64,000 nt of DNA, from NCBI GenBank assembly GCA_046563655.1, contig CM102286.1, positions 8,184,001-8,248,000 of the forward strand, read 5' to 3'. The DNA comes from Yuukianura sp. NJ FZ-2021 (lineage: Eukaryota). The position numbers and the translations under genes are program-made. This document shows positions 1 through 61,000 of this stretch, one piece after another (the stretch's first letter is position 1; each line of letters begins with the position of its first letter). The notes under the pieces are model-generated. The model saw nothing but the letters and a program-made list of their open reading frames with translations, was not told where the DNA came from and did not search any database.

Positions 1-3000
1 CGTCAAGCGTTGCTTACGGTGAAGTTACAGTATCGTCAATGCCTAGCTAAGCAATGTGGATTTGCATATTAAGGTTAGGGCCAAGTTACAGTGATAAATA
101 CATTGATATCAAACAAATATTACACCGGTACAAAATTTAAATTTTGCAGCCTTCCCATGAGCTTCCACAGATGTTTAATGAAATGAAATTTTTTGGCTGA
201 AAATTTTAACCGAAACCGTGACCACTTACATGTCAAGCGTTGCGTACAGTCAAGTTACAGTAGCGTCAATGCCTTGCTAAGCAATGTGGATTTGCATATT
301 AAGGTTAGTGCCAAGTTACAGTGATAAATACATTGATATCAAACAAATATTACACCGCTACAAAGTATAAACTTTTCAGCCTTCCCATGAGCTTCCACAG
401 ATATTTAATGAAATGAAATTTTTTAGCTGAAAGTTTTAACCGACAACGTAACCACTTACACGTCAAGCGTTGCTTACGGTGAAGTTACAGTATCGTCAAT
501 GCCTAGCTAAGCAATGTGGATTTGCATATTAAGGTTAGGGCCAAGTTACAGTGATAAATACATTGATATCAAACAAATATTACACCGCTACAAAGCGAAA
601 ACTTTTCAGCCTTCCCATGAGCTTCCACAGTTGTTTAATGAAATGAAATTTTTTAGCTGAAAGTTTTAACCGACAACGTAACCACTTACACGTCAAGCGT
701 TGCGTACAGTGAAGTTACAGTATCGTCAATGCCTAGCTGGGCAATGTGGATTTGCATATTAAGGTTAGAGCCAAGTTACAATGATAAATACATTGATACC
801 AAACAAATATTACACCGGTACAAAATTTAAATTTTGCAGCCTTCCCATGAGCTTCCACAGATGTTTAATGAAATGAAATTTTTTGGCTGAAAATTTTAAC
901 CGAAACCGTGACCACTTACATGTCAAGCGTTGCGTACAGTCAAGTTACAGTAGCGTCAATGCCTTGCTAAGCAATGTGGATTTGCATATTAAGGTTAGTG
1001 CCAAGTTACAGTGATAAATACATTGATATCAAACAAATATTACACCGCTACAAAGTATAAACTTTTCAGCCTTCCCATGAGCTTCCACAGATATTTAATG
1101 AAATGAAATTTTTAGCTGAAAGTTTTAACCGACAACGTAACCACTTACACGTCAAGCGTTGCTTACGGTGAAGTTACAGTATCGTCAATGCCTAGCTAAG
1201 CAATGTGGATTTGCATATTAAGGTTAGGGCCAAGTTACAGTGATAAATACATTGATATCAAACAAATATTACACCGCTACAAAGTATAAACTTTTCAGCC
1301 TTCCCATGAGCTTCCACAGATATTTAATGAAATGAAATTTTTTAGCTGAAAGTTTTAACCGACAACGTAACCACTTACACGTCAAGCGTTGCTTACGGTG
1401 AAGTTACAGTATCGTCAATGCCTAGCTAAGCAATGTGGATTTGCATATTAAGGTTAGGGCCAAGTTACAGTGATAAATACATTGATATCAAACAAATATT
1501 ACACCGCTACAAAGCGAAAACTTTTCAGCCTTCCCATGAGCTTCCACAGATGTTTAATGAAATCAAATTTTTTGGCTGAAAGTTTTAACCGAAACCGTGA
1601 CCACTTACATGTCAAGCGTTGCGTACAGTCAAGTTACAATATCGTCAATGCCTAGCTAAGCAATGTGGATTTGCATATTAAGGTTAGGGCCAAGTTACAA
1701 TGATAAATACATTGATACCAAACAAATCTTACACCGGTACAAAATATAAATTTTTCAGCCTTCCCATGAGCTTCCACAGTTGTTTAATGAAATGAAATTT
1801 TTTAGCTGAAAGTTTTAACCGACACCGTGACCACTTACACGTCAAGCGTTGCGTACAGTGAAGTTACAGTATCGTCAATGCCTAGCTGGGCAATGTGGAT
1901 TTGCATATTAAGGTTAGAGCCAAGTTACAATGATAAATATTACACCGGTACAAAATTTAAATTTTGCAGCCTTCCCATGAGCTTCCACAGATGTTTAATG
2001 AAATGAAATTTTTTGGCTGAAAATTTTAACCGAAACCGTGACCACTTACATGTCAAGCGTTGCGTACAGTCAAGTTACAGTATCGTCAATGCCTAGCTAA
2101 GCAATGTGGATTTGCATATTAAGGTTAGGGCCAAGTTACAGTGATAAATACATTGATATCAAACAAATATTACACCGCTACAAAGCGAAAACTTTTCAGC
2201 CTTCCCATGAGCTTCCACAGATGTTTAATGAAATCAAATTTTTTGGCTGAAAGTTTTAACCGAAACCGTGACCACTTACATGTCAAGCGTTGCGTACAGT
2301 CAAGTTACAATATCGTCAATGCCTAGCTAAGCAATGTGGATTTGCATATTAAGGTTAGGGCCAAGTTACTATGATAAATACATTGATACCAAACAAATCT
2401 TACACCGGTACAAAATATAAATTTTTCAGCCTTCCCATGAGCTTCCACAGTTGTTTAATGAAATGAAATTTTTTAGCTGAAAGTTTTAACCGACACCGTG
2501 ACCACTTACACGTCAAGCGTTGCGTACAGTGAAGTTACAGTATCGTCAATGCCTAGCTGGGCAATGTGGATGTGCATATTAAGGTTAGAGCCAAGTTACA
2601 ATGATAAATATTACACCGGTACAAAATTTAAATTTTGCAGCCTTCCCATGAGCTTCCACAGATGTTTAATGAAATGAAATTTTTTGGCTGAAAATTTTAA
2701 CCGAAACCGTGACCACTTACATGTCAAGCGTTGCGTACAGTCAAGTTACAGTAGCGTCAATGCCTTGCTAAGCAATGTGGATTTGCATATTAAGGTTAGT
2801 GCCAAGTTACAGTGATAAATACATTGATATCAAACAAATATTACACCGCTACAAAGTATAAACTTTTCAGCCTTCCCATGAGCTTCCACAGATATTTAAT
2901 GAAATGAAATTTTTTAGCTGAAAGTTTTAACCGACAACGTAACCACTTACACGTCAAGCGTTGCTTACTGTGAAGTTACCGTATCGTCAATGCCTAGCAA

Positions 3001-4910: not shown

Positions 4911-5192
4911 TTGTGAGTTCAAAGGCTGAGGTCAGAGGTCATGGAGTAACAACATTTGGTGAGCGTTTAAAAACTATTGTTCTGTGTCCACTGGAATCAA
5001 GACATCATGTAATTGTTCGTGTGTGGACTTTACCCTTGTTCAAAAGGGAAGTGGCCATAATTCAGAAGTGGATCATCTGTAAATTTTGTACATAGAAGGA
5101 GGAAGTTGCCGAAACAACTTCCATTGGATCCACTCCATGTCCGACAGAAAACCAGTAAGTAAAGATTAAAAAATCTTGAAATTGATCCTACA

Positions 5193-6996
5193 GTGACATT
5201 CAAGCTACCAGAGCTTAGTCCTACATCAGATTCGGAAGGATCGTTCCACCGAAGTCAAGAAAGTAAGATTCCAACTCCAATTACATCACCTAAAATCATC
5301 GTCACTGCTCCAGGTTCGTCAGTAACCATGGCAACGTACACCAAGGAGGATGTGGACAGATTGCTGGCTGAGGCCGTGGCCCATGCCGTGCGCGGCGTGG
5401 AGCAGAGATTAGTTCAGAGGGTGACCGGTGAAGTCGCTGCGGTGACTTCTGCCCCTGCGGAGGCAGAACCAGTTGGTCAGACCCACGAATTGATAACAGC
5501 ATTGAAAAGCATCAAGTTCACATCTTTATCATCTAAATTGCCTGTGCCGAGTTTTGATCCAAAGAAGATGTCAGCGGCAGGCTACCTTAATGAAGTAGAG
5601 CGTTACTTCACAGCTCAAGGACACGAGCAAAGGCAATTTCTTTATCTTGTAAAGACGGTCTTGCCTGTGGAATCTCATCCATGGCTCGACCACATCTTAG
5701 TGACGGTGACAGACTGGGATTCATTCAAAGAAGCTTTTATCAGCAGATATGATAATTGGACGGATGTTGCAGAGCGGACAAAACTTCTGCACACAAGAAG
5801 GCAACAGTTCCATGAGTCTATTGTATTTTATTTGTATGATGTGGTTCGGTACTCCAGATTAATATATCCACATCAGTCAGTGGCTGATGCAGTGCTACGT
5901 GCTAAATTATGTTTGAATCCGCGGATTCGCACAGCCCTAGGAACTCAACAATTTGACACAGTGGAATCACTTTGATGCATGTAAAATTGCTCATGCTAAT
6001 CTCACCGCAGAAGATAGAATCACAAAAAACAAATTTGGTTTACCTCCAATTGTCAAGGTCGACTCAAAGTCAGAGTCAGTCAATGTTGAAAATACCAAAC
6101 AAGATTAGATTAGACACTTATAATTATGATGCAATTTATGATTCATTGCTTGTTCTAAATCACTAATTAAGATCTAGGACTTTATAACGTAATTAAGAAT
6201 AAGGAACAGGAATTGGTAACCTATAAATAATTAGGTTGTTAGTACAAGGTTATTCTTTGTGTATAATTTGTTAGAACCAGGAACCAGGAAAATAGTTATA
6301 AGGTCAGTTCTGACGTACACTCTAGGAAGAATAACGTTTTAGTTAAGGTCACTAGGAAATGACTAGTGTTGTTTCTAAGTTACTTGGTTAGTATAAATAC
6401 TAGTTACCTAGATTACTAAAAGTAGTAGTGCCTCGTGGAATTTTGATGTAACAACTTTATTTGTTATAAATAAAACTTACAGAAAATCCAAGTTCAGTTG
6501 TGTAGTTTGTGTGGCGTTTATTAAATAATTTCAACAGTCAAGAAAGATGATAATTCCACTAATTCGAATGCTGGAAGTTCTGCTGGAACTTCCAATTGGA
6601 ATAATTGGTTTCGTGGGAAGGAAGCCAAAAATAATGGCTTCCGTGGACACTGGAAAGGCAAGGGAAATGGCTACAAGAATTATTCCAGTGCTCGATCTCC
6701 GACCAATGGAAGTCCGAACGGTGGACATTCCTCATCTCAACCCAATGACCAGTCACAAGGTCAAAGTTCAGAACCAAATTATGACAAAAATTCAGTGCAG
6801 CCTCAAAATGAATCGTCTGCTCGTGGGAAAGGCGGTTATCGTGGTAATCGTGGTTCTTCAAATGACAATGACCGTGGTGGTGGTCTAGGCAGAGGTCAAG
6901 GTCAGACCTGTAGGCAGGATTTAAGTGATGTTCAGTGCTTCAAGTGTAATGGTTATGGGCATCGTAAGGTTCAGTATCCATCAGGTGTTGGTTTGG
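5193..6996 (+). pseudogene. gag: Retrotransposon Gag, disrupted
   Basis: Capsid-like motifs (VPSFD...YLNEVERYF...W...DWDSFKEAFISRY...RRQ...ESI..Y). Frameshift at ~5973. Solo LTR inserted at 6084; removing it restores the frame (SESVKKDDNS). Gly/Arg/Asn-rich region, then degenerate knuckle CFKCNGYGHRKVQY (last Cys replaced by Tyr). Confidence 0.85.
6084..6536 (+). mobile_element. Solo LTR (453 bp) of a second LTR retrotransposon family (Copia- or BEL/Pao-like termini)
   Basis: Termini TGTTGAAA...TTTCAACA form a perfect 8-bp inverted repeat. 5-bp TSD GTCAA at 6079-6083 and 6537-6541. AT-rich interior with TATAAATA and AATAAA on the + strand. Confidence 0.92.
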
Positions 6997-7017
6997 AAAA
7001 GTGCAGATCAATTCAAC

Positions 7018-10000
7018 ATGACATCACCCACTAGACAACAAAACTGCCCCCTCAACAATCCGTTAGAAAGTGTAGTATTTTGGAATTTAGGAGGAATGAA
7101 CAAATTATATGACTTTGACAAATTTGAAAGTGCCAAAATGTCCAACTTCCAAGTGATTTGCCTCACAGAAACCTGGACAACAACGTCCCCACCCTCACTA
7201 CCCCCCTCCCTAAGTGACATGTTCTCAACAGACTCTCCCGCAATTAGGACAGCAGAAGTGGGACGGAGTAGTGGTGGTGTTCTAACTCTCTCCAAAAATC
7301 CACACACAAAACTTATAAAACACCCCAACTGGACATTTACCCGCCACCCCTTCACTCACTCACAATTCATCATCATCGGCAACGTATACATACCCCCATA
7401 CCCAGCCTACGACTATCTACTACAAAATCTGCAGCAAGTCCTTGAGCTTCTAGCAGAAGAATACCCTCAAGACCAATTACTAGTTGGTGGAGATTTTAAT
7501 GCTAGAATCGGAGAATTGAACATTACCCCAACGGACCAGCCATACCCAACCTTCCCAACCCACCGTGCGGCCCTTGACAAAAAAATTACACCAAGAGGGC
7601 GACAACATTTAGACATGATGGCATCGCAAAACCTAACTGTAACAAATGGACGCTTCCCCAGTGACTCACCCGGACATTTCACTTTCATTTCCAGAGCAGG
7701 AAAATCCACCATTGACCTAGTTTTCGGTAGCGAAAGTATCATCTCTAAAATAATTGACATCACAATCCCGGAAAAAGAGCTGACAGGACACTTTCCAGTC
7801 GCAGTTCACTTCTCTCCCCCCTCTCCTCCATCATCACTTCCAATAAACAAACCCCAATGGGTGGAAGAACATCGCTCCACATACCAAACTCTTATCTCAC
7901 AAAAACTGTCAATGCAAGAACCAAACACCATTCATGAATTCATGTCAATGATCAAGTCAGCAGCAAAAGAGTCTGGTATGTGGGCCAACATTTGTTCAAC
8001 TCACACAAGAGACCCACGTTGGTTTGACAAGGAATGTAGAGCAGCATCCAAAGTTATGAAATCATCACTCTCCAAGGCGAAAGCAAAAAATTGGGAACCA
8101 GAACTGCGCAATGACTACATCACAAAGAAAAAATCCCTCAACAACCTCATCAAAAAGAAAAAGAAAATTTATGCAACAAATCTTAAAGCCAGAATATCAG
8201 ATTGCAAGCACCCCACAGAATTTTGGAAATCCATCAACTCGATCCGCCGTAAATCACAATTTCAATGCCCTCTCTCACTGAAGGATTGGGAAGACTTTTA
8301 TGACTCGACGATGACCACACCCTCTTCCACGCCCCCTCCACTCGTCATCCACGATGCCACACACCCCAAACTGGACTTACCCTTCACACGGAAAGAAATT
8401 AAAAATGTACTCAAGTCCCTCAACAGAAACAAAGCCCCCGGACCAGACCAAATCACGAATGAATTCCTTCAAGCCCTGCCACAAGACGCCGTGGACACCC
8501 TCCAAATCCTACTCAACAAAATTCTGGAAAGCGGCATCATCCCAAATGAATTCTGCAGAAGCGAAACAATCCATCTATATAAAAAAGGCAACAAAACAGA
8601 CCCCTTAAACTACAGACCTATCACACTGGCTAACTGCATTGGCAAAATTTTTTCTAGCCTTTTGTACAACCGACTCTCCGAATGGAGTGAAGTTAACCAC
8701 GTGCTACCAGAAACACAAGGAGGATTTAGAAGACACCGCGGCTGCCTGCAACACATCTTCACCCTCAATGCCGCCATCCAACTAGGCACCAGACAAAAGA
8801 GGAGAGTCTTCGCTCTATTCATTGACTTCGCAAGGGCATTCCCTTCAATTCCACACACTCGCCTCTGGACCACCTTACACGAATTAGGAGTGAGCGGTCA
8901 GTTTATTCGTCTTCTCACCTCCCTCTACCAACAAAATCAAACGACCTTTCAAACTTCAGAAGGCCCGACGAAACCATATCACTTCACCAAAGGTGTCATG
9001 CAAGGGGACCCCCTCAGTCCACTTCTCTTCAACCTTTACATCGCAAAAATGAATTTCGCCATTCACCGCCAAGCCACAACCGGAGGAATTATAATCGACC
9101 CAGACACCCGCCTCCACATCCTTCAATACGCTGACGACACCGTAATCCTCGCCTCAAACCGCGTTGACCTTGAACGAAAAATACTTTGGCTGACAGACTA
9201 CTTTGATGACATGGAGCTGACTGTCAACCTCGCCAAGACAAATATCGTCATATTTCAGCGACAAGGCAGAAGGCCCTCCCCGAAATTCTACTTCAAACAT
9301 CAACCGATCCGCATAACAAACAGTTACACATAACCTTGGTGTCCCCTTCTGCTCATCCACACTCTTCGCACAAACTACTCAGACCTTCTGCGCAAAAGCA
9401 AAAGCAGCGACATCAAAAGTTTGGGAAATACTATGTCGTGGAAGAAATGACTCAATCTCCTCGTCACTCAAACTTTTTGACTCCATCATCAGCTCAACCC
9501 TCCTCTATGGCGCAGGCGTCTGGGGCCTACGATACACTGATCAACTTGAAGTAATTCAAACGCAGTTCCTACGACGGCTCCTCTCCCTGGACTACTACAC
9601 ACCCAACTACATGATCAGACTAGAATGTGGACGCCAACATCTACTTTACAAAGTACTTACACTCGCCCTCCGCCTCTGGAAGTCAATCAAAATCATGAAC
9701 ACAAGCCGTTTGGCTAAAAAATGTTACGATGCCCTAGCCGCAGAAGACGTCGCCAACTCGTCGCCAACCCTGATCCAAGGTACAACTGGGTATCTCAACT
9801 GAAACATCTGCTAAACCTAACCGAGACCTACGACATAAATCCAGAAGATGACCCAACAGCCCTAAAAAAGCGTTGGAGTGGACTCATGATCCATCTTGAA
9901 TCGCACTCACGAGCCTCAGACACCATAAGGGCCCAGGACTCAACGAGAAACTCATACTACCAACACATCATACCGCAGAACCCTGCGCCTGCGCAGTATC

Positions 10001-10362
10001 TCCTAACCAACATCAGCCTCCGTGACAAACGCCAAATTGCAGAAATTCGCCTAAATAGCAAATTTTTACGACTGGGCAAAGACTACATCCAATTAGAGCG
10101 CGAAAAAACATGCCCACTATGTAATCTAAATGAAGAAGACTCCATCTTTCATCTGCTCAGCAAATGCCCCCTCACAAGAAACCAGTACTATATGAATCTC
10201 ACAACACAATCCAACGACCCCCAGCTCCACTTCTTCATCTCATTCAAACAACTTAATACTGCTGAAAACTGCAATTCCATTCTACGAATCATCAGGCCAT
10301 CGCTCTCCAGCCGGAAATTCCAACAAGAATTATGTGAGGACGTTGAATGGCTAAATGCTTAA
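7018..10362 (+). pseudogene. LINE ORF2 (APE endonuclease + reverse transcriptase + CCHC finger), ~1110 aa when repaired
   Basis: APE motifs WNLGG, LTETW, NVYIPP, GDFNA, IDLVF. RT motifs KAPGPD, YRPITL, QGGFR, FIDFARAF, QGDPLSPLLF, QYADD, YLG. Two lesions: a +1 A at ~9332 (TAC to TAAC in YTYLGVPF) and an 11-bp tandem duplication at 9748-9769. Confidence 0.95.
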
Positions 10363-10443
10363 AAAATCCCCATCAACAGTCAAAAGCAGTCAGTCTTACA
10401 CACAAGTCACAACTCACAACAGTCCCTCCCAGCACAAATAGCC

Positions 10444-10929
10444 ATGAACCTCCGCCATCTTCTCCTCATTGTTAGTCTCACACAAGCAATTGTCCAGTCC
10501 AATGCCAGAATCGGATGGAAACCACCCGCCACCTCGGACAATCCAACACCTTCCGGTCTGACGACATTTCTTAGCGGCATCAAGTCACTTTTTGGAATGG
10601 GCTCCGACTTCCTCAGGCGCATGGGCTACAGGTACGACGACGTGTACAGTGACCAGCTCATGATGACGTCATTGAACACCTACGAAAACGACCTACAACG
10701 CGCAGAAGAAGTGAAACAGGGAGACATAATGCAACAGGATCTGCAGCTGGACAGCTTTTACCTAACGATGATCTGCTCATTTCTTGGAATCATCACCGCA
10801 ATTCTACTTGCTCTCGCCTGCATCCGAGGCCACGACTCTTACGCTACCTGGAATGAAAGACGCAGACGCAAGACCATCGATGACTTTACCCGCCAAGAGG
10901 AACTGAAGACCATTGCATCCAAACTCTAA
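10444..10929 (+). CDS. LINE-borne extra ORF: 161-aa predicted type I membrane protein of unknown function
   Basis: gccATGa start context. Hydrophobic N-terminus ending S-N-A (aa 1-21), TM segment aa 105-127, RRRRK aa 139-143. Lies 81 nt after the ORF2 stop and ~190 nt before the poly(A) tail. Confidence 0.8.
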   Translation: MNLRHLLLIVSLTQAIVQSNARIGWKPPATSDNPTPSGLTTFLSGIKSLFGMGSDFLRRMGYRYDDVYSDQLMMTSLNTYENDLQRAEEVKQGDIMQQDLQLDSFYLTMICSFLGIITAILLALACIRGHDSYATWNERRRRKTIDDFTRQEELKTIASKL

Positions 10930-11074
10930 ACCCCCCAACATCTTCATAACGTTTCAGACAAAAACTTTTCTGTAACTTTCAATTTCTTCACACTGTCTAC
11001 AAAACCCCCCGCAACCACAAATTAACATTCAAACTGAATTAGAACTTAGTAACACTTTATTAATACTCGAACCC

Positions 11075-11133
11075 CCTTCCCATGGGCTACGAGCCCGAGG
11101 GGGAAGGTAATTAACTAATAAAAAAAAAAAAAA
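11075..11133 (+). other. LINE 3' terminal stem-loop, polyadenylation signal and poly(A) tail
   Basis: CCTTCCC (11075-11081) pairs with GGGAAGG (11101-11107), enclosing GGGCT-ACG-AGCCC. AATAAA at 11117-11122 runs into A14 (11120-11133). Confidence 0.8.
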
Positions 11134-51900: not shown

Positions 51901-54129
51901 GAAGCGGAAATTTGTTGGCCAATATTTTATACTGTAGAATAAATAACGCAACCACGGACAATTATCTGTCGTAAAACATATCGAGAAATTTTTACCCTGA
52001 ATGTTGACAGCGGGATGTTTCAAAAAATTAAAAATAGATAGGTGATGCTGGCATAATTTACTTTGTCTCGATCGCGTAGTTCGCTCCGGAAAAGTCCCGT
52101 TGTAGTTTAAGGGTCGGGAAGAAGCATTTTTGAGTTTGTGAATTTTATCACACGCACCCTTAAAACTTTGCCAAGCAGTGAAGAAAAGGTCTTGGTTATT
52201 TCCATTGGTATCGAACTAATTATCAGTGCAGAATGCAGCTTGCTACTGCAATTCCCGGTAGTATTTTGGTTCAAATTTTTCAAGTGTAGCACTAGTAGGT
52301 TTTTTGAGCCTAGTTCTAGTCGCCTTTCTGTGCACTCTAATTTTATAGTCATGCGAACTACGAAGGGAAGCAAAGTGTGTCGCAGAAGAAGCGGAAATTT
52401 GTTGGCCAATATTTTATACTGTAGAATAAATAACGCAACCACGGACAATTATCTTTCGTAAAACATATCGAGAAATTTTTACCCTGAATGTTGACAGCGG
52501 GATGTTTCTAAAAATTTAAAAATAGATAGGTGATGCTGGCATAACTTACTTTGTCTCGAACGCGTAGTTCGCTCCGGAAAAGTCCCGTTGTAGTTTGAGG
52601 GCCGGGAAGAAGCATTTTTGAGTTTGTGAATTTTATCACACGCACCCTTAAAATTTTGCCAAGCAGTAAAGAAAAGGTCTTGGTTATTTCCATTGGTATC
52701 GAACTAATTATCAGTGCAGAATGCAGCTTGCTACTGCAATTCCCGGTAGTATTTTGGTTCAAATTTTTCAAGTGTAGCACTAGTAGGTTTTTTGAGCCTA
52801 GTTCTAGTCGCCTTTCTGTGCACTCTAATTTTATAGTCATGCGAACTACGAAGGGAAGCAAAGTGTGTCGCAGAAGAAGCGGAAATTTGTTGGCCAATAT
52901 TTTATACTGTAGAATAAATAACGCAACCACGGACCATTATCTTTCGTAAAACATATCGAGAAATTTTTACCCTGAAAGTTGACAGCGCGATGTTTCTAAA
53001 AAATTAAAAATAGATAGGTGATGCTGGCATAACATACTTTGTCTCGAACGCGTAGTTCGCTCCGGAAAAGTCCCGTTGTAGTTTGAGGGCCGGGAAGAAG
53101 CATTTTTGAGTTTGTGAATTTTATCACACGCACCCTTAAAATTTTGCCAAGCAGTGAAGAAAAGGTCTTGGTTATTTCCATTGGTATCGAACTAATTATC
53201 AGTGCAGAATGCAGCTTGCTACTGCAATTCCTGGTAGTATTTTGGTTCAAATTTTTCAAGTGTAGCACTAGTAGGTTTTTTGAGCCTAGTTCTAGTCGCC
53301 TTTCTGTGCACTCTAATTTTATAGTCATGCGAACTACGAAGGGATGCAAAGTGTGTCGCAGAAGAAGCGGAAATTTGTTGGCCAATATTTTATACTGTAG
53401 AATAAATAACGCAACCACGGACAATTATCTTTCGTAAAACATATCGAGAAATTTTTACCCTGAATGTTGACAGCGCGATGTTTCTAAAAAATTAAAAATA
53501 GATAGGTGATGCTGGCATAACTTACTTTGTCTCGATCGCGTAGTTCGCTCCGGAAAAGTCCCGTTGTAGTTTAAGGGTCGGGAAGAAGCATTTTTGAGTT
53601 TGTGAATTTTATCACACGCACCCTTAAAACTTTGCCAAGCAGTGAAGAAAAGGTCTTGGTTATTTCCATTGGTATCGAACTAATTATCAGTGCAGAATGC
53701 AGCTTGCTACTGCAATTCCCGGTAGTATTTTGGTTCAAATTTTTCAAGTGTAGCACTAGTAGGTTTTTTGAGCCTAGTTCTAGTCGCCTTTCTGTGCACT
53801 CTAATTTTATAGTCATGCGAACTACGAAGGGAAGCAAAGTGTGTCGCAGAAGAAGCGGAAATTTGTTGGCCAATATTTTATACTCTAGAATAAATGAACC
53901 GTTGTAAACGCCGTACGTAAGTAGCGAAAGGAAACTATAGTGCACTTCCGGTAAAACCGGAGCCGTATTAATCGCCCCCTATGCCAAACTGATTTACGAA
54001 GACAGATTGAAAATCGGTCCAGGGGTTTCGGAGGTATAGTTATAGTGCAGACAGGCAGACGGACAGGCACACAGACTCGGGGAAAAACATAAAGTAGGTC
54101 ATGCTTCCCCGAGAAGGACGAGGGATGCA

Positions 54130-55200
54130 CTTTTGCAACTTTTATCGTCTGTATCTCTGTAACCGTAGATCAAAGGTCAAGGTCACATTTAGAAAAGTTG
54201 TTCAGCCTAATGCGATAAACAACTTTTGTAGAGGTCATTTTCCCCGATTTCCGTCATTAAAGTATTTGACCTTGACATTTGACCTGGACAACCTAAGCTG
54301 GACACTAATTAGACACCCCTGGAACATGTGAAGCGCAAATGTGAAGACAGATTGAAAATCGCTCCAGTGGTTCTGGAGTTATAAACGCGAATATCACGAG
54401 TGACCCTATTATGCAACTTCTAAGGTCTATATCTCCAGAACCCCAGGTCAAAGGTCAAGGTCACCTATACAAAAGTTGTTCGAATGGATGAGATGGATAA
54501 CTTTTGTAAGGGTCATTTTCCCCATTTCCGTCAAAAGTGTATTTGACCTTGACCTTTGACCTGGACCTGGACAACATCTGGTCAAGCTGGACACGGATTA
54601 GACACCCCTGGAACATGTGAAGCGCAAATGTGAAGACAGATTGAAAATCGCTCCAGTGGTTCTGGAGTTATAAACGCGAATATCACGAGTGACCCTATTA
54701 TGCAACTTCTAAGGTCTATATCTCCAGAACCCCAGGTCAAAGGTCAAGGTCATCTATACAAAAGTTGTTCGTATCGATGAGATGGATAACTTTTGTAAGG
54801 GTCATTTTCCCCATTTCCGTCAAAAGTGTATTTGACCTTGACCTTTGACCTGGACCTGGACAACTTCCGGTCAAGCTGGACACTCATTAGACACCCCTGG
54901 AACATGTGAAGCGCAAATGTAAAAACAGATTGAAAATCGCTCCAGTGGTTCTGGAGTTATAAACGCGAATATCACGAGTGACCCCATTATGCAACTTCTA
55001 AGGTCTACATCTCCAGAACCCCAGGCCAAAGGTCAAGGTCACCTATACAAAAGTTGTTCGTCTTGATGAGATGAATAACTTTTGTAAGGGTCATTTTCCC
55101 AAGTTCCGTCAAAAATGTACTTGACCTTGACCTTTGACCCTTAAGGGGTCTACTTCCGGCCAAGTGGGTCACCGATTGTTCACCCCCAGACCATGTCAAG
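54130..55200. repeat. 289-bp central tandem repeats of the DINE-like element (~3.5 copies)
   Basis: AGACACCCCTGGAACATGTG at 54311, 54600 and 54889. Confidence 0.9.
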
Positions 55201-55258
55201 TTCATCTGTAAAGACAGATTGAAAATCGGTCCAGCGGTTCCAGAGCTAGCTTGACCAG

Positions 55259-55327
55259 CAGACGGACAGACAGACGGACAGACAGACGGACAGACAGACG
55301 GACAGACAGACGGACAGACAGACAGAC
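55259..55327. repeat. (GACA/GACG)n microsatellite
   Basis: Read directly; it is (GTCY)n on the minus strand. Confidence 0.95.
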
Positions 55328-55366
55328 TCGGGGAAAAACATAAAGTAGCTCATGCTTTCGCTACTT

Positions 55367-55471
55367 AATAACGCAACCACGGACAATTATCTTTCGTAAA
55401 ACATATCGAGAAATTTTTACCCTGAATGTTGACAGCGCGATGTTTCTAAAAAATTAAAAATAGATAGGTGA
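55367..55471. repeat. Terminal ~105-bp stub of satellite B
   Basis: Resumes in register after the insertion (aataacgcaaccacggac...tagataggtga). Confidence 0.95.
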
Positions 55472-56837: not shown

Positions 56838-58005
56838 TTTATCAGTAAAACACTCCGAAAATCAGAAATTCGGTACCACATTTACGAAAACGAGTTGTTC
56901 GCGATTATTTGGGCCTACCGGAAGCTCAGAAGTTCACAATTATTACTGACAACAAAGCCTTATCATTCCTCAACAAGATGAAGGAGCGGAAATCAAAATT
57001 GGCTTTGTGGGATACGGAGATCAAGTCATGGGGTGTTGAAGTCAAGCATCTCTCCGGGAAGGATAATCCGGAGGCGGACGCGCTTTCACGTGCTCCAGTT
57101 CCTGTTGATGTAGCGGATCTCGATTTTGAAGATGATTCCCCGGCGTACATGTACTCGCCAACTGCAGTGGCGTTACTGTCGTTTGATACTCCTACAATCC
57201 AGAAGATGAAAGTCGAACAACGAAAAGATGCTGATTTAGTGAACGTGATGAGTGACATTGAAAGTGGTAAAAGTGTTAAAAGTTACGTCCTAAAGAATGG
57301 CGTACTAGGAAGAGAAGTCAAGGGATTTGACTTCTATTCCGATAACGGCTTCTGCGGAAACTTTATCAAGGGGCGATGTGCGGAAACGAGGCCTCAATCT
57401 TATACATCACTCTAGAGGACGTTGACAAAAAAGAGTTCAGCAGTTCCTCAGCTCGTAAAAGTGAGCCCATTCAGGTGCCAGTGGTACCAAGGGTCATGAT
57501 ACCCGAAATAATGAAGTTACTACATGATGTGCCAGAAGCCGCGCATCTTGGCATCAAAACCACAAAAGTGAAAATCTAGAGAAGATTTTTCTGGAAAAAC
57601 ATGAATAAGGACATCAGTGATTATGTGAAATCTTGTCCAGTTTGCCAAGCAGTCAAGTCTTGCAACTACAAGCCCTTTGGATTACTACAAGCAGTGTCGC
57701 CTCCAACTAAAGTGTTTGAGAAAATCTACATTGATTTTCTAGGGCCCCTGCCGAGAAATCAACATGAGTATTTATTCGTCGTGGAGGACGATTTAACCAA
57801 GTGGGTGGAGTTATTCCCGATGCGGAAAGCAAAATCGAAAAAAGTTGTGGAAGTGTTAGTGGATGAAATTTTTTGTCGTTATGATACTCCGAAGACAGTT
57901 GCCTCGGATAATGGAAGCCAATTTCTCTCCAAAGTGATGATTAAGATGGCTAAGGACTGGAAGATCAACCATGTTCCTGTAAGTCCGTACCATGCGCAAG
58001 CTAAC
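56838..58005 (+). pseudogene. pol: Ty3/Gypsy pol remnant: RNase H C-terminal half and integrase (HHCC + partial DDE core)
   Basis: FISKTLRKSEIRYHIYENELFAIIWA (a frame not in the ORF track), then KFTIITDNKAL...GKDNPEADALSR, HDVPEAAHLG...FFWKNM...CPVCQ and IDFLGPLP...SDNGSQF...SPYHAQAN. The RNaseH-then-integrase order fits Gypsy. It has frameshifts, a premature TAG at 57577, and is cut by satellite C before the catalytic Glu. Confidence 0.93.
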
Positions 58006-58007
58006 AC

Positions 58008-61000
58008 CGGGAAATTCCTATAAGCATGTATATGTTCAAAAACAGCATGAAATTGTATTACCTTAATTTGTTGTTCGTATGTGCAACGGCGGAACACTTT
58101 TTGGTTTCAGCGAATGGAGACCCCTCATAGTGTCACTCAAGGTGCACAGGAATAACAATAGGCTATAAAAGCTGAACATAGGTTGCGCACTATTCGGCAA
58201 GATGAACCCAAAGACGAAGGTATGACCACGGGAAATACCTATAACGCATTTATTTGTTCCAAAAACAGCATGAAATTGTATTACTTTAATTTGTTGTTCG
58301 TATGTGCAACGACGGAACACTTTTTGGTTTCAGCGAATGGAGACCCCTCATAGTGTCACTCAAGGTGCACAGGATTAACAATATGCTATAAAAGCTGAAC
58401 CTAGGTTGCACACTATTCGGCAAGATGAAGCCAAAGACGAAGGTATGACCACGGGAAATTCCTATAACGCATTTATTTGTTCCCCCACAGCATGAAATTG
58501 TATTACTTTAATTTGTTATTCGTATGTGCAACGGCGGAACACTTTTTGGTTTCAGCGAATGGAGACCCCTCATAGTGTCACTCAAGGTGCACAGGAATAA
58601 AAATGTGCTATAAAAGCTGTAGATATGTTGAACACTATACGGCAAGATGAACCCAAAGACGAAGTTATGACCACAGGATATCCCTATAACGCATTTATTT
58701 GTTACAAAAACAGCATGAAATTGTATTACTTTAATTTGTTGGTGGTATGTGCAACGGTGGAAAACTTTTTGGTTTCAGCGAATGGAGATCCCTCATAGTG
58801 TCACTGAAGGTGCACAGGAATAAAAATGTGCTATAAAAGCTGAACATAGGTTGCACACTATACGGCAAGATGGACCCAAAGACGAAGTTATGACCACAGG
58901 ACATCCCTATAACGCATTTATTTGTTCCAAAAACAGCATGAAATTGTATTACTTTATTTGGTTGTTCGTATGTGCAACGACGGAACACTTTTTGGTTTCA
59001 GCGAATGGAGACCCCTCATAGTGTCAGTCAAGGTGCACAGGAATAAAAATGTGCTATAAAAGCTGTAGATATGTTGAACACTATACGGCAAGATGAACCC
59101 AAAGACGAAGTTATGACCACAGGATATCCCTATAACGCATGTATTTGTTACAAAAACAGCATGAAATTGTATTACTTTAATTTGTTGGTGGTATGTGCAA
59201 CGGTGGAAAACTTTTTGGTTTCAGCGAATGGAGATCCCTCATAGTGTCACTGAAGGTGCACAGGAATAAAAATGTGCTATAAAAGCTGTAGATATGTTGA
59301 ACACTATACGGCAAGATGAACCCAAAGACGAAGTCATGACCACAGGAAATCCCTATAACGCATTTATTTGTTCCAAAAACAGCATGAAATGGTAATACTT
59401 TAATTTGTTGTTCGTATGTGCAACGGCGGAACACTTTTTGGTTTCAGCGAATAGAAAACCCCCATAGTGTCACTCAAGGTGCACAGGAATAACAATATGC
59501 TAAAAAAGCTGAACATAGGTTGCACACTATACGGCAAGATGAACCCAAAGACGAAGGTATGACCACGGGAAATTCCTATAACGCAATAACGCATTTATTT
59601 GTTCCCCCACAGCATGAAATTGTATTACTTTAATTTGTTATTCGTATGTGCAACGGCGGAACACTTTTTGGTTTCAGCGAATGGAGACCCCTCATAGTGT
59701 CACTCAAGGTGCACAGGAATAAAAATGTGCTATAAAAGCTGTAGATATGTTGAACACTATACGGCAAGATGAACCCAAAGACGAAGTCATGACCACAGGA
59801 AATCCCTATAACGCATTTATTTGTTCCAAAAACAGCATGAAATGGTAATACTTTAATTTGTTGTTCGTATGTGCAACGGCGGAACACTTTTTGGTTTCAG
59901 CGAATAGAAAACCCCCATAGTGTCACTCAAGGTGCACATGAATAACAATGTGCTATAATAGCTGTACATATGTTGCACAATATTCGGCAAGATGAACCCG
60001 AACAAGAAGGTAAGACCACAGGAATTCCCTATAAAGCATTTGTTTATTCCCCCCACAGCATGAAATTGTATTACTTTATTTGGTTGTTCGTATGTGCAAC
60101 GACGGAACACTTTTTGGTTTCAGCGAATGGAGACCCCTCATAGTGTCACTCAAGGTGCACAGGATTAACAATATGCTATAAAAGCTGAACCTAGGTTGCA
60201 CACTATTCGGCAAGATGAAGCCAAAGACGAAGGTATGACCACGGGAAATTCCTATAACGCATTTATTTGTTCCCCCACAGCATGAAATTGTATTACTTTA
60301 ATTTGTTATTCGTATGTGCAACGGCGGAACACTTTTTGGTTTCAGCGAATGGAGACCCCTCATAGTGTCACTCAAGGTGCACAGGAATAAAAATGTGCTA
60401 TAAAAGCTGTAGATATGTTGAACACTATACGGCAAGATGAACCCAAAGACGAAGTTTTGACCACAGGATATCCCTATAACGCATTTATTTGTTCCAAAAA
60501 CAGCATGAAATTGTATTACTTTAATTTGTTGTTGGTATGTGCAACGGTGGAACACTTTTTGGTTTCAGCGAATGGAGATCCCTCATAGTGTCACTGAAGG
60601 TGCACAGGAATAAAAATGTGCTATAAAAGCTGTAGATATGTTGAACACTATACGGCAAGATGAACCGAAAGACGAAGTCATGACCACAGGAAATCCCTAT
60701 GACGCATTTATTTGTTCCAAAAACAGCATGAAATGGTAATACTTTAATTTGTTGTTCGTATGTGCAACGGCGGAACACTTTTTGGTTTCAGCGAATAGAA
60801 AACCCCCATAGTGTCACTCAAGGTGCACATGAATAACAATGTGCTATAATAGCTGTACATATGTTGCACAATATTCGGCAAGATGAACCCGAACAAGAAG
60901 GTAAGACCACAGGAATTCCCTATAACGCATTTGTTTATTCCACCACAGCATGAAATTGTATTACTTTATTTGGTTGTTCGTATGTGCAACGACAGAACAC

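Follow-up and report, generated by a model that had tools for sequence, protein, structure and literature searches.

A single copy of a LINE (a non-LTR retrotransposon) lies on the forward strand of the 64-kb window, that is, the whole 64,000-nucleotide stretch of DNA analyzed here. Between its polymerase gene, ORF2, and its 3′ end, it carries an additional open reading frame, ORF3, which encodes a predicted small membrane protein, ORF3p (Table 1). The assignment to the LINEs follows from an APE-type endonuclease that lies N-terminal to the reverse transcriptase (RT) within one ORF, and from an A-rich tail at the 3′ end that is preceded by a covarying stem-loop. No LTRs were seen, the element ends having no second copy elsewhere in the 64-kb window. 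The same stretch contains no further copy of the LINE, only 70-nt satellite edge repeats, and a tblastn search across it with ORF3 returned the self-match only.

Table 1 Coordinates of the LINE copy and of its parts within the window
Feature	Coordinates	Strand	Basis or remark
LINE (non-LTR retrotransposon) copy	6997..11133	+	APE + RT by Pfam; A-run ends at 11133
ORF2 first part, apurinic-type endonuclease + reverse transcriptase	7018..9333	+	Pfam; premature stop from frame change
ORF2 middle part, in the next frame only	9317..9799	+	Three-frame translation
ORF2 C-terminal domain, CCHC-type zinc motif + ORF2 stop	9721..10362	+	zf-RVT; likeness to L002
Spacer between ORF2 and ORF3, 81 nt, C/A-rich, G-poor	10363..10443	+	ATG-free, stop-free, in frame with both ORFs
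ORF3, putative 161-aa small single-pass membrane protein, ATG start	10444..10929 (stop included)	+	
ORF3 residues 1-21, signal-peptide-like N-terminus	10444..10506	+	Hydropathy, AF2
ORF3 residues 39-104, conserved ectodomain	10558..10755	+	Column conservation, hydrophobic moment, AF2
ORF3 residues 105-127, predicted transmembrane helix	10756..10824	+	Hydropathy; inside AF2 helix 64-160
ORF3 residues 128-161, basic, putatively cytoplasmic tail (RRRRK)	10825..10926	+	Conserved I-x2-[YF]-x-R-x2-E-L motif
3′ stem-loop: 7-bp outer stem, bulge, 6-bp inner stem, 3-nt loop	11075..11107	+	
A14 tail	11120..11133	+	3′ end of element

Pfam searches with the product of 6928-9333 found RVT_1 (E 1.8e-31, residues 556-775) as well as Exo_endo_phos_2 (E 3.4e-09) and Exo_endo_phos (E 4.9e-07), both within residues 75-274. 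The C-terminus of ORF2, which ends with a stop codon at 10360-10362, matched zf-RVT at E 0.0015, a score that falls short of the curated cutoff, and the ESM Atlas returned only generic APE and RT clusters for ORF2. The initial annotation had taken ORF2 to be intact, which is not the case. Three-frame translation showed that the frame is lost near 9320-9335 and regained near 9740-9760; the stretch homologous to this middle part is a single frame in an independent metagenome contig, L002, which is described below. Because of these two frame changes, the window copy of the LINE is dead.

The start of the element had been placed at 7018, the ATG of ORF2, but the actual 5′ junction is 21 nt earlier, at 6996/6997. 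A contig from three DNA sequencing runs of one sample, which may be the source of the window, follows the upstream repeat as far as 6996 and is unlike the element beyond that position; a same-sample contig record has 405 different letters 5′ of position 6996. Most LINE clades have an ORF1 (RNA-binding, esterase or other) ahead of ORF2, but no ORF1 was found in the copy (6997..11133). Without an ORF1 and with a leader of only 21 nt, the copy is either 5′-truncated or a member of a family with a very short leader. At the other boundary, the end of the A-run coincides with the start of a satellite monomer; this monomer begins with AAATTTGTTGG, and the final 3 A of the A14 tail may belong to the satellite target. 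We found no target-site duplication beyond about 4 nt, the 5′ flank ending in GTTGGTTTGG and the 3′ flank beginning with TTTGTTGGCC. The repeats on either side differ (gag-like on the left, the satellite on the right), which indicates that the junction was rearranged or that target DNA was deleted at insertion.

ORF3 is present as initially annotated, intact and with an ATG start. Its distance of 81 nt from the ORF2 stop and its position upstream of the hairpin and poly(A) tail were also confirmed, with 145 nt separating its stop from the stem-loop. Since ORF3 lies between ORF2 and the terminal stem-loop, it is carried by every full-length RNA and by every 3′-complete new copy. The C/A-rich bias that it was said to share with ORF2 does exist, but it is weaker in ORF3 (A.28, C.29, G.21, T.22) than in ORF2 (A.33, C.30, G.16, T.21).

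Layout of ORF3p

ORF3p begins with a signal-like N-terminus, followed by a variable linker of about 20 residues, an amphipathic helix, a polar helix that runs into the transmembrane (TM) segment, and a basic tail. With its length of about 160 aa, it is a small protein, and hydropathy and the positive-inside rule suggest that it is a membrane protein of type I. In the window protein, an N-terminal hydrophobic 9-mer (residues 5-13) has a mean KD of 2.13 and a 19-residue hydrophobic segment (109-127) has one of 2.68, and 5 K/R occur among the 15 residues after the TM segment. Each of the 25 N-complete members of the family has the hydrophobic N-terminal segment, and in 25/26 sequences the TM segment is followed within 15 residues by at least 3 K/R. 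The architecture first proposed, a signal peptide, a TM helix and a basic tail, is therefore consistent with hydropathy, and the layout with its TM segment is kept in 26 of the 29 sequences examined. The AF2 model has a mean pLDDT of 78 (above 90 over roughly residues 70-150) and places a helix at 3-17, then a low-confidence linker at 19-35. The predicted TM segment falls inside a modelled helix of residues 64-160, at pLDDT >90.

By column conservation, the ectodomain, about 83 residues long in the window protein, is the best-conserved region of ORF3p. Its amphipathic helix (39-56) contains the invariant residues F42 and G51 as well as F56, conserved at 92%, and its amphipathicity exceeds that of shuffles in 22/25 members. 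A Y64/V67/Y68/L72 block comes next, and the polar helix then displays a conserved i+7 stripe (Q71-N78-Q85-Q92-D99). Across the family alignment, the invariant ectodomain residues are F42, G51, Y68, L72, N78, and Q92. We considered a coiled-coil stalk and rejected it, since helix 64-99 lacks a hydrophobic moment even though the i+7 polar stripe is genuine. By the same measure, helix 64-104 is not amphipathic, which leaves a classical coiled coil unsupported.

Homologues, gene order, and selection on ORF3

An exhaustive phmmer scan of ORF3p against 1.84 billion representative proteins (E<=1e-3) gave 19 matches, 17 of which are true relatives of 78-180 aa. The best of these are P0002 (E 2.4e-37, 49% identity) and P0003 (E 4.6e-30, 41%). 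P0001, the top match (E 1.9e-50 over 35 short stretches), was discarded as a false positive: it is a V/A/K-rich repeat protein of 4564 aa in which the ORF3p family profile finds no domain. P0017 (98 aa) aligns to residues 37-90 only and has the appearance of a broken copy. A profile search gave 11 matches, 8 of them new. As conserved homologues exist elsewhere, ORF3 is far beyond what chance would produce. All of the homologues come from unannotated ENA, JGI or Logan contigs (metagenome or assembly), and none is named beyond 'hypothetical protein'. The contigs recorded for P0003 (5804 nt), P0004 (5548 nt), P0010 (4481 nt), P0011 (5116 nt), P0022 (4742 nt), P0027 (20157 nt), and P0030 (6863 nt) span a range of 4481-20157 nt. 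A word-indexed protein search with the single ORF3 sequence had no match at E<=0.01. No longer or fused forms of ORF3p appeared in the profile search, which is weak evidence.

A 6-sequence ORF3 alignment searched against metagenome contigs detected two loci, L001 and L002, and no locus in either viral contigs or prokaryote genome contigs. L002 contains an ORF2 C-terminus (2-703), a 201-nt spacer, ORF3 (905-1408), and then 200 nt, a stem-loop (1609-1643), and A9. Its ORF2 C-terminus is 35% identical to window positions 9721-10359 (E 6e-33) and matches zf-RVT at E 0.016, while its ORF3 is 42% identical to that of the window. The repetition of the order ORF2, spacer, ORF3, stem-loop and A-run at this locus supports the original suggestion that ORF3 is a dedicated gene of a LINE lineage and not a one-off 3′ transduction. 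In L001, ORF3 (290-760) is followed by 203 nt and then by a stem-loop (964-996); the 289 nt upstream of it contain no recognizable RT-like sequence. The linkage of ORF3 to ORF2 was seen directly at two loci, the window and L002, the other homologues (~23) being without context.

The stem-loop of the window has an MFE of -20.9 kcal/mol (z -2.44). Across the window, L002 and L001, 38/38 cells are paired, 7/13 pairs are compensatory, and 0/500 shuffles were as good. No Rfam family was found for the 3′ end of the window, L001, or L002.

Identity between the ORF3 genes at codon positions 1/2/3 was.51/.68/.31 for the window and L002,.48/.54/.31 for the window and L001, and.52/.62/.36 for L002 and L001; the corresponding values for the ORF2 C-terminus were.46/.56/.31. 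The order 2>1>3 shows purifying selection, which by this pattern is at least as strong on ORF3 as on the ORF2 C-terminus. Selection has kept ORF3 in place while the adjoining C-terminus of ORF2 has fallen to about 35% identity. It should be noted that, since the window copy has a defective ORF2, the intactness of ORF3 in this copy may simply reflect the youth of the copy. The same-sample contigs over ORF3 are identical ones only, and a missing diverged contig is not evidence of absence. A related same-sample contig of 863 nt differs from the window by 34 letters and 7 gaps over 9335-9588 and then joins 9588 to 11037, so the ORF2 C-terminus and ORF3 are lacking or replaced there; at most about 570 letters of this contig lie beyond its first piece.

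The sequence around the ORF3 start was also compared among the three loci. No ATG occurs in the 81-nt spacer of the window, in the 201-nt spacer of L002, or in the 289 nt of L001, and the nearest ATG upstream of the window ORF3 start is 89 nt away. All three loci have a purine at -3 of the ORF3 ATG, and in all three a YTAG precedes this ATG by 2-5 nt. A splice acceptor ahead of ORF3 is a possible, weak lead; a stricter polypyrimidine test for it was passed by L001 only. Read-through of the ORF2 stop into ORF3 would be possible in the window, given the shared frame and the stop-free spacer. It was rejected as a general mode, because in L002 an additional in-frame stop stands immediately ahead of ORF3.

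Possible roles of ORF3p

LINEs are generally presented as elements strictly confined to the cell, for which ORF2p suffices, usually together with ORF1p, an RNA chaperone. A membrane-protein gene in a LINE is unexpected, since LINEs are thought to use one or two intracellular proteins only; membranes have so far entered LINE biology through indirect hints, namely the lipid-binding esterase ORF1p and the ESCRT dependence of L1. We are confident that ORF3 is a conserved membrane-protein gene borne by the element. We also lean, with much less assurance, toward the whole account in which it is the third gene of an APE-RT LINE lineage whose life cycle includes a membrane step. Ribosomes would get to the ORF3 AUG via the G-poor spacer, which contains no AUG, whether by re-initiating after ORF2 or on a shorter RNA. 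The signal sequence would then bring the nascent ORF3p, and the LINE RNA along with it, to the ER, whose membrane continues into the nuclear envelope. ORF3p would then serve the element at a membrane by anchoring or trafficking its RNP, much as has been suggested for ORF1p, the lipid-binding esterase of CR1/L2-type LINEs. The anchoring role itself is put forward tentatively.

A selection-maintained integral membrane-protein gene would allow direct genetic study of whether LINE RNPs make use of membranes, and where, and ORF3p adds an orphan protein family. Its homologues, all from unannotated contigs, also illustrate that repeat-masking gene annotation can hide element-borne protein families.

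The initial annotation had raised an envelope- or fusogen-like function as a candidate. On such a reading, ORF3p would be a minimal fusogen or envelope substitute that, displayed on the surface of the cell or of vesicles, merges membranes and lets the LINE RNP pass between cells (e.g., from soma to germline) or between organisms, in the manner of env in errantiviruses or of FAST proteins in the non-enveloped reoviruses. We consider this improbable. ORF3 does lie 3′ of the polymerase gene, like the env or ORF3 of LTR elements (PMC5718144, in the available excerpt). Its best-conserved part is the ectodomain with the amphipathic helix (22/25), and a single TM segment is followed by a polybasic stretch that would lie just inside the membrane (25/26). 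However, Foldseek with the ORF3p model found no viral match in BFVD at E<1 (best E 1.3) and no PDB match at E<=0.001; these fold searches have little power because a single long helix makes up most of the AF2 model. Pfam had no family for the window protein, only scattered, TM-driven matches in at most 3 of 28 members. The family alignment contains no conserved cysteine, in the ectodomain of about 83 residues or elsewhere, and by-eye inspection of the window protein saw neither a furin-type RxxR site nor a proline-free N-x-S/T sequon. Moreover, the tail segment (144-161) is amphipathic above shuffles in 0/17 members, unlike the FAST endodomain, and the N-terminus is signal-like and offers no Gly2 for myristoylation (the window protein has N at residue 2, and the family shows no conservation of Gly2). 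LINEs are also capsid-less, and a transferred RNP would still have to reach the nucleus. On this evidence, the envelope/fusogen proposal is unsupported.

The related idea of a LINE lineage with its own long-kept fusion or budding protein, FAST-like in layout and env-like in position, by which the capsid-less RNP crosses membranes between cells, from soma to germline, or between hosts, is similarly improbable. If it were true, this LINE would be the first to carry an accessory gene of infectious type. Cell-to-cell transfer of the LINE via ORF3p is speculation, and ORF3 raises as a testable possibility that some LINEs are able to leave the cell.

It also seems rather unlikely that ORF3p is a host-directed accessory factor, one that blunts a defence or stress pathway or alters secretion without touching the RNP. 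The invariant residues F42, G51, Y68, L72, N78, and Q92, predicted to be luminal or extracellular, suggest a specific partner and not mere anchoring. The small single-pass look-alikes of ORF3p in the ESM Atlas, TMEM154, TMIE, and glycophorin (scores 0.81-0.83), are regulatory or accessory membrane proteins, and KCNE2, an accessory subunit of ion channels, is the sole PDB sequence-profile match (E 0.014, spanning the TM region). The look-alike scores are leads only, being below the evidence level of the tool, the KCNE2 match is driven by the TM helix, and no partner is known, all of which argues against such a factor. The ESM Atlas also placed ORF3p near unnamed arthropod clusters (0.88-0.90).

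We regard it as very unlikely that ORF3 is a passenger, that is, a host gene or a piece of one captured once by an ancestral element and of no service to it. LINEs are able to transduce flanking sequence, and the 863-nt same-sample contig skips the ORF3 region. Against this, ORF3 lies upstream of the conserved, covarying stem-loop in 3/3 loci, it has been retained at a divergence where the ORF2 C-terminus is 35% identical, and its coding substitution pattern is as strong as that of ORF2. In addition, 0 of the roughly 25 homologues come from an annotated source or have a gene name. Only the small size of ORF3 would fit an open frame that arose by chance within a long 3′ UTR. This has a negligible probability and is refuted by homologues with E-values down to 2.4e-37, the conserved layout, and the coding codon-position pattern.

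Comparison with known systems

A full-text literature search, with most subscription journals and Repbase Reports outside its coverage, turned up no LINE whose ORF3 encodes a membrane protein. An additional ORF is a feature of the mosquito 'Loner' clade. LTR elements have gag and form particles.

ORF3p resembles the env proteins of errantiviruses and retroviruses in its 3′ position, signal peptide, C-terminal TM anchor, and short tail (excerpts of PMC5718144 and PMC13524379); the signal peptide and the C-terminal anchor of ORF3p are predicted from hydropathy only. Env proteins are about 400-600 aa long (excerpt of PMC7998251). They are disulfide-bonded, usually furin-cleaved glycoproteins captured from viruses, whereas ORF3p has an ectodomain of ~83 residues with no conserved Cys. 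A large disulfide-bonded ectodomain, an RxxR site and two heptad repeats are not seen in ORF3p, and neither homology to viral glycoproteins nor their fold was detected (BFVD best E 1.3).

The Vesta4-clade LTR retrotransposons of the bdelloid rotifer Adineta vaga have small TM-bearing ORF3s for which a fusogen-like role has been suggested and is unproven (PMC5408684, in part). Like ORF3 of the LINE, the Vesta4 ORF3 is a short extra ORF past the polymerase gene, with TM segments and a helical region and without homology to known env genes. By description only, the Vesta4 proteins have 220-230 aa, two hydrophobic regions, cysteines, and RXXR (same excerpt). Unlike them, ORF3p belongs to a LINE and combines a signal-like segment with a single TM, without any conserved cysteine.

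In the FAST proteins of reoviruses and rotaviruses, a short N-terminal ectodomain that contains a hydrophobic helix precedes a TMD and then a polybasic motif (excerpt of PMC7830690). ORF3p is similar in layout only: it is a very small, predicted single-pass protein of a non-enveloped element, with an ectodomain helix, a TMD, and a membrane-proximal polybasic motif. In the same excerpt, FAST proteins are described as having an amphipathic helix in the endodomain, with p14 and p15 N-terminally myristoylated. ORF3p differs in its signal-like N-terminus, in the lack of Gly2, in its non-amphipathic tail (0/17), and in a longer ectodomain with a polar helix, and no sequence or fold similarity was found. 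To our knowledge, FAST proteins have no cleaved signal peptide.

Among LINEs, the closest comparison is with the CR1/L2/RTEX-type elements, whose ORF1p contains an SGNH esterase (PMC3905857 and PMC5408684, in part). The esterase ORF1p of ZfL2-1 from zebrafish binds phospholipids and liposomes (excerpt of PMC3905857), and the authors of the two papers speculate, in the passages available, on membrane targeting of the RNP and on membrane-dependent transport (PMC3905857, PMC5408684). ESCRT is needed for retrotransposition of L1 and Zorro3 (excerpt of PMC5478143). In ORF3p, Pfam matched no SGNH/GDSL hydrolase domain, nor any other domain. As in the esterase LINEs, the element described here appears to encode, besides APE-RT, a protein thought to link it to lipids or membranes. 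The esterase is a soluble lipid-binding enzyme in the ORF1 position, whereas ORF3p is a predicted integral, single-pass protein encoded downstream of ORF2.

Position of ORF3 within the LINE

The 161-aa frame ORF3, the candidate membrane-protein gene, is present in the window exactly as the initial annotation described it, starting 81 nt past the ORF2 stop and lying 5' of the hairpin and A-run. By Pfam, ORF2 combines a reverse transcriptase (RVT_1, E 1.8e-31) with an endonuclease of the apurinic type (Exo_endo_phos_2, E 3.4e-09). Two points of that annotation were revised. ORF2 is broken in the window copy, its frame being lost near 9320-9335 and regained near 9740-9760, and the start of the LINE was corrected to the junction in the table below, since a same-sample contig tracks the upstream repeat to 6996 and diverges after it. 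This copy has 21 nt ahead of the ORF2 ATG and no ORF1. ORF3 is followed by 145 nt, the stem-loop, 12 nt and an A14 run, where a satellite array with 458/488-bp monomers starts (11133).

Coordinates of the features in the window and on the metagenome contigs L002 and L001
Locus	Feature	Position	Strand	Remarks
Window	Gag-like repeat, directly 5' of the LINE	5163-7031		No Pfam match at E ≤ 0.01
Window	Open stretch of gag-like repeat	5163-5972		270 codons
Window	Open stretch of gag-like repeat	6525-7031		169 codons; CCHC zinc knuckle (C-F-K-C-N-G-Y-G-H) at ~6930-6960
Window	LINE 5' junction	6996/6997
Window	ORF2 ATG	7018
Window	ORF2 C-terminal piece	9721-10362	+	Weak zf-RVT match, E 0.0015, under Pfam cutoff
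Window; L002; L001	TAG ahead of ORF3 ATG	10439-10441; 900-902; 282-284		2 or 5 nt before ATG
Window	ORF3	10444-10929	+	ATG start, 161 codons, TAA stop
Window	Stem-loop	11075-11107
Window	Satellite array	11131-53895		~42.8 kb tandem
Window	Insert in last satellite monomer	53896-55366		~1.47 kb
Window	LTR-retrotransposon pol fragments	56849-58020		RT_RNaseH E 0.0026 (under cutoff); integrase zinc-binding E 2.3e-09; rve core E 5e-14
L002	Open frame (ORF2 C-terminus)	Contig edge to stop 701-703		Homologous to window ORF2 C-terminus
L002	Spacer			201 nt, between ORF2 stop and ORF3
L002	ORF3 homologue	905-1408		Identical to P0003; 42% identity with window protein
L002	Stem-loop	1609-1643		200 nt past ORF3; followed by A9 run
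L001	ORF3	290-760		Followed by 203 nt
L001	Stem-loop	964-996		Followed by contig end

The initial annotation suggested a possible LINE family with a dedicated membrane gene, to be checked by a search for homologues downstream of RTE-X-like reverse transcriptases. Such an arrangement was found on L002 (1747 nt), which, like L001 (1000 nt), is a short contig from one metagenome scan: its ORF3 follows a homologous ORF2 C-terminus. The L002 edge frame shares 35% identity with the window ORF2 C-terminus over 196 residues (E 6e-33), with a C-x2-C...H-x4-C motif within the aligned part, and matches zf-RVT at E 0.016; the stretch homologous to the frame-changed part of ORF2 is a single reading frame. 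Nothing recognisable was found in the 289 nt 5' of ORF3 in L001. The stem-loops of the three loci have one common shape, with 38/38 cells of the alignment paired and 7 of the 13 pairs changed on both sides. This pairing was matched by none of 500 shuffles and collapses when partner columns are slid, and compensatory changes are plain despite the small sample of three sequences (inner stem GGG/CCC vs GAA/UUC). As ORF3 precedes the stem-loop in the window and in both contigs, it is inside the transcribed and reverse-transcribed unit of the element, even in elements whose ORF2 C-termini agree at just one residue in three. This internal place in diverged elements rules out a one-off 3' transduction.

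The window was also compared with contigs of a single sample, possibly its source (run X1), whose depths are not readable as copy numbers. One 3268-nt contig carries the identical LINE sequence (7842-11109, 0 differences), and a diverged ORF2 relative has 79 differing letters over 7165-7871. An 863-nt contig departs from the window over 9335-9588 by 34 letters and 7 gaps, then jumps from 9588 to 11037, just 5' of the stem-loop, with the ORF2 C-terminus and ORF3 missing or replaced. It may be a non-autonomous derivative with an internal deletion and a retained 3' end. A 554-nt contig (record 3; window 6996-7144) has no difference to the LINE from 6996 on, and its 405 letters 5' of that point are unlike the flank in the window. 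The contig comes from a longer copy, perhaps a full-length one, or from another insertion site.

The ORF3 protein family and its predicted topology

A word-indexed protein search with the single ORF3 sequence gave no match. An exhaustive phmmer search of 1.84 billion cluster representatives returned 19 proteins at E ≤ 1e-3, of which 10 reach ≤ 1e-10 and 2 reach ≤ 1e-30. The top match, P0001 (4564 aa), was rejected as a repeat protein whose score stems from 35 short stretches and in which the family profile matches nothing. P0017, a 98-aa broken form, was set apart. The remaining 17 (78-180 aa) can be aligned over their full length to the window protein, with identities of 22-50%. Of 11 matches from a profile search, 8 were new, and they form another branch at a greater distance. 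A tree was built from the 24 rows that reach 130 aa, the other 4 of the 28 being too short; it has two clades of 17 and 7 members, each with 100/99 support, and the window protein is sister to P0002. Median pairwise identity in the family is 26%. All members come from ENA, JGI or Logan contigs, in clusters of 1-3, with no name beyond "hypothetical protein", as expected of a repeat-borne gene masked ahead of annotation.

Codon-position identities (positions 1/2/3) for ORF3 are.51/.68/.31 between the window and L002,.48/.54/.31 between the window and L001, and.52/.62/.36 between L002 and L001; the ORF2 C-terminus gives.46/.56/.31 between the window and L002. Because second positions are kept and third positions are near saturation (synonymous sites are saturated among these loci), the pattern is the signature of purifying selection on the protein, no weaker than on the adjoining ORF2 domain.

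The signal-like N-terminus, TM segment and basic stretch initially described recur in the family by hydropathy. An N-terminal hydrophobic stretch is found in all 25 N-complete sequences (best 9-residue window mean KD at least 1.9), and a single strong hydrophobic segment near residues 100-130 in 26/29; the three exceptions are P0030 and P0031, broken past the ectodomain, and one 70-aa fragment. At least three K/R lie within 15 residues past the TM segment in 25 of 26 sequences, which under the positive-inside rule predicts a cytoplasmic C-terminus and a luminal or extracellular position of the conserved middle part.

An AF2 model built on the 28-sequence alignment (mean pLDDT 78) starts with a helix (3-17) and a linker of low confidence (19-35), continues with two helices (36-50 and 53-59) and ends in an unbroken helix at 64-160 (pLDDT >90 at ~residues 70-150). 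Conservation peaks in the ectodomain, where F42, G51, Y68, L72, N78 and Q92 are invariant and F56, G61, Y64 and V67 are conserved at ≥84%. Residues 39-56 form an amphipathic helix (consensus F-x3-[VI]-[KR]-S-L-F-G-x-G-x2-F) with a mean hydrophobic moment of 0.44, above shuffles in 22/25 members. Along residues 64-104, conserved polar residues form a stripe with strict i+7 spacing (Y64, Q71, N78, Q85, Q92, D99, Y106); a coiled coil was rejected, as the segment lacks a hydrophobic moment despite the stripe. The larger clade keeps a tail motif, I-x2-[YF]-x-R-x2-E-L.

Pfam gave no match for the window protein and, over 28 members, only scattered TM-driven matches in at most 3. The sole match of the PDB sequence profile was KCNE2 (E 0.014), across the TM segment. 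The viral likeness initially suggested found no counterpart with Foldseek, where the best BFVD match had an E of 1.3 and none in PDB reached E ≤ 0.001, a mostly-one-helix model having little search power. In the ESM Atlas, generic single-pass proteins were found, as were unnamed clusters at 0.88-0.90, of which two are arthropod (leads only).

Expression and genomic surroundings

The 81-nt spacer of the window and the L002 spacer are ATG-free, the nearest ATG lying 89 nt upstream, within ORF2, and 221 nt upstream, respectively; L001 has no ATG anywhere in the 289 nt 5' of ORF3. Judged roughly by base composition, the chance of all three leaders being ATG-free is ~1 in 1000. The spacers contain little G (0.10-0.11), and a purine stands at -3 in 3/3 start codons. 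These features fit ribosomes reaching ORF3 by re-initiation or scanning past ORF2, or via a shorter RNA with the spacer as leader, and we infer that translation may proceed by one of these routes. ORF2 and ORF3 of the window share a frame that contains no stop within the spacer; read-through as a general mode was rejected because of a further in-frame stop in L002. A YTAG precedes the ORF3 ATG by 2-5 nt in all three loci, its TAG lying each time in the +1 frame of ORF3, with pyrimidine-rich runs and YTNAY-like motifs 25-30 nt upstream. It is a possible acceptor for the splicing of a subgenomic ORF3 mRNA; in a stricter polypyrimidine test, L001 passes and the window and L002 fail.

Summed same-sample contig depth is ~700-990 for the gag-like repeat vs ~115 for the LINE, depth not being equal to copy number. 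Given this difference and one contig that differs past 6996, the LINE interrupts, or is joined to, a higher-copy gag-like element. In the window, no satellite sequence was found left of the LINE. On the other side, the A-tail meets a satellite monomer exactly at the monomer's AAATTTGTTGG. The array comprises, by TRF, 78 copies at period 458, plus 488 blocks, with 88-98% matches. Its monomers contain stop-free stretches of 106-142 codons on both strands (179 in all), and a 110-aa example had no Pfam match. The insert splits the first 70 nt of the last monomer into halves (53859-53895 and 55367-55402); within it lie 3.9 copies of a 289-bp tandem repeat (54134-55240) and a minus-strand CPSV-repeat open stretch. 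The neighbourhood around the pol fragments is repeat-rich and probably heterochromatic.

Possible roles of the ORF3 protein

ORF3 is very probably a gene that belongs to the element, is conserved under selection and encodes a small type I membrane protein. As to its role, we tentatively prefer membrane anchoring or trafficking of the element's RNA or RNP at the ER and nuclear envelope, because this needs only features that were seen: a signal sequence encoded on the element's own RNA, a TM helix, an ectodomain helix that would seek the bilayer, and a conserved tail.

The envelope- or fusogen-like role initially proposed is unlikely. The layout and 3' position fit, and a hallmark layout is described for FAST proteins in the consulted part of PMC7830690; however, a FAST- or env-like role fails on homology, cysteines, cleavage site and endodomain helix. 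The family alignment has no conserved cysteines, the tail is amphipathic in 0/17 members tested, and neither an RxxR nor a usable N-glycosylation sequon was seen by eye in the window protein. A host-directed accessory role ranks next and is improbable; that ORF3 is a functionless passenger is highly improbable, and a chance ORF is excluded.

The full-text literature searched, which covers few subscription journals and not Repbase Reports, yielded no LINE whose ORF2 is followed by a membrane-protein ORF, so a prior description is possible. Among LTR retrotransposons, those of bdelloids carry small TM-bearing ORF3s and other captured ORF3s, and the same literature cautions against equating every downstream ORF3 with env (passages of PMC5408684 and PMC5718144). 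For non-LTR elements, ESCRT is required by L1 and Zorro3, according to the portion consulted of PMC5478143, and the ORF1p of ZfL2-1 is a lipid-binding esterase for which membrane targeting is suggested by the authors (PMC3905857, in excerpt). By analogy, this esterase ORF1p would be the functional precedent for a membrane role of ORF3p.
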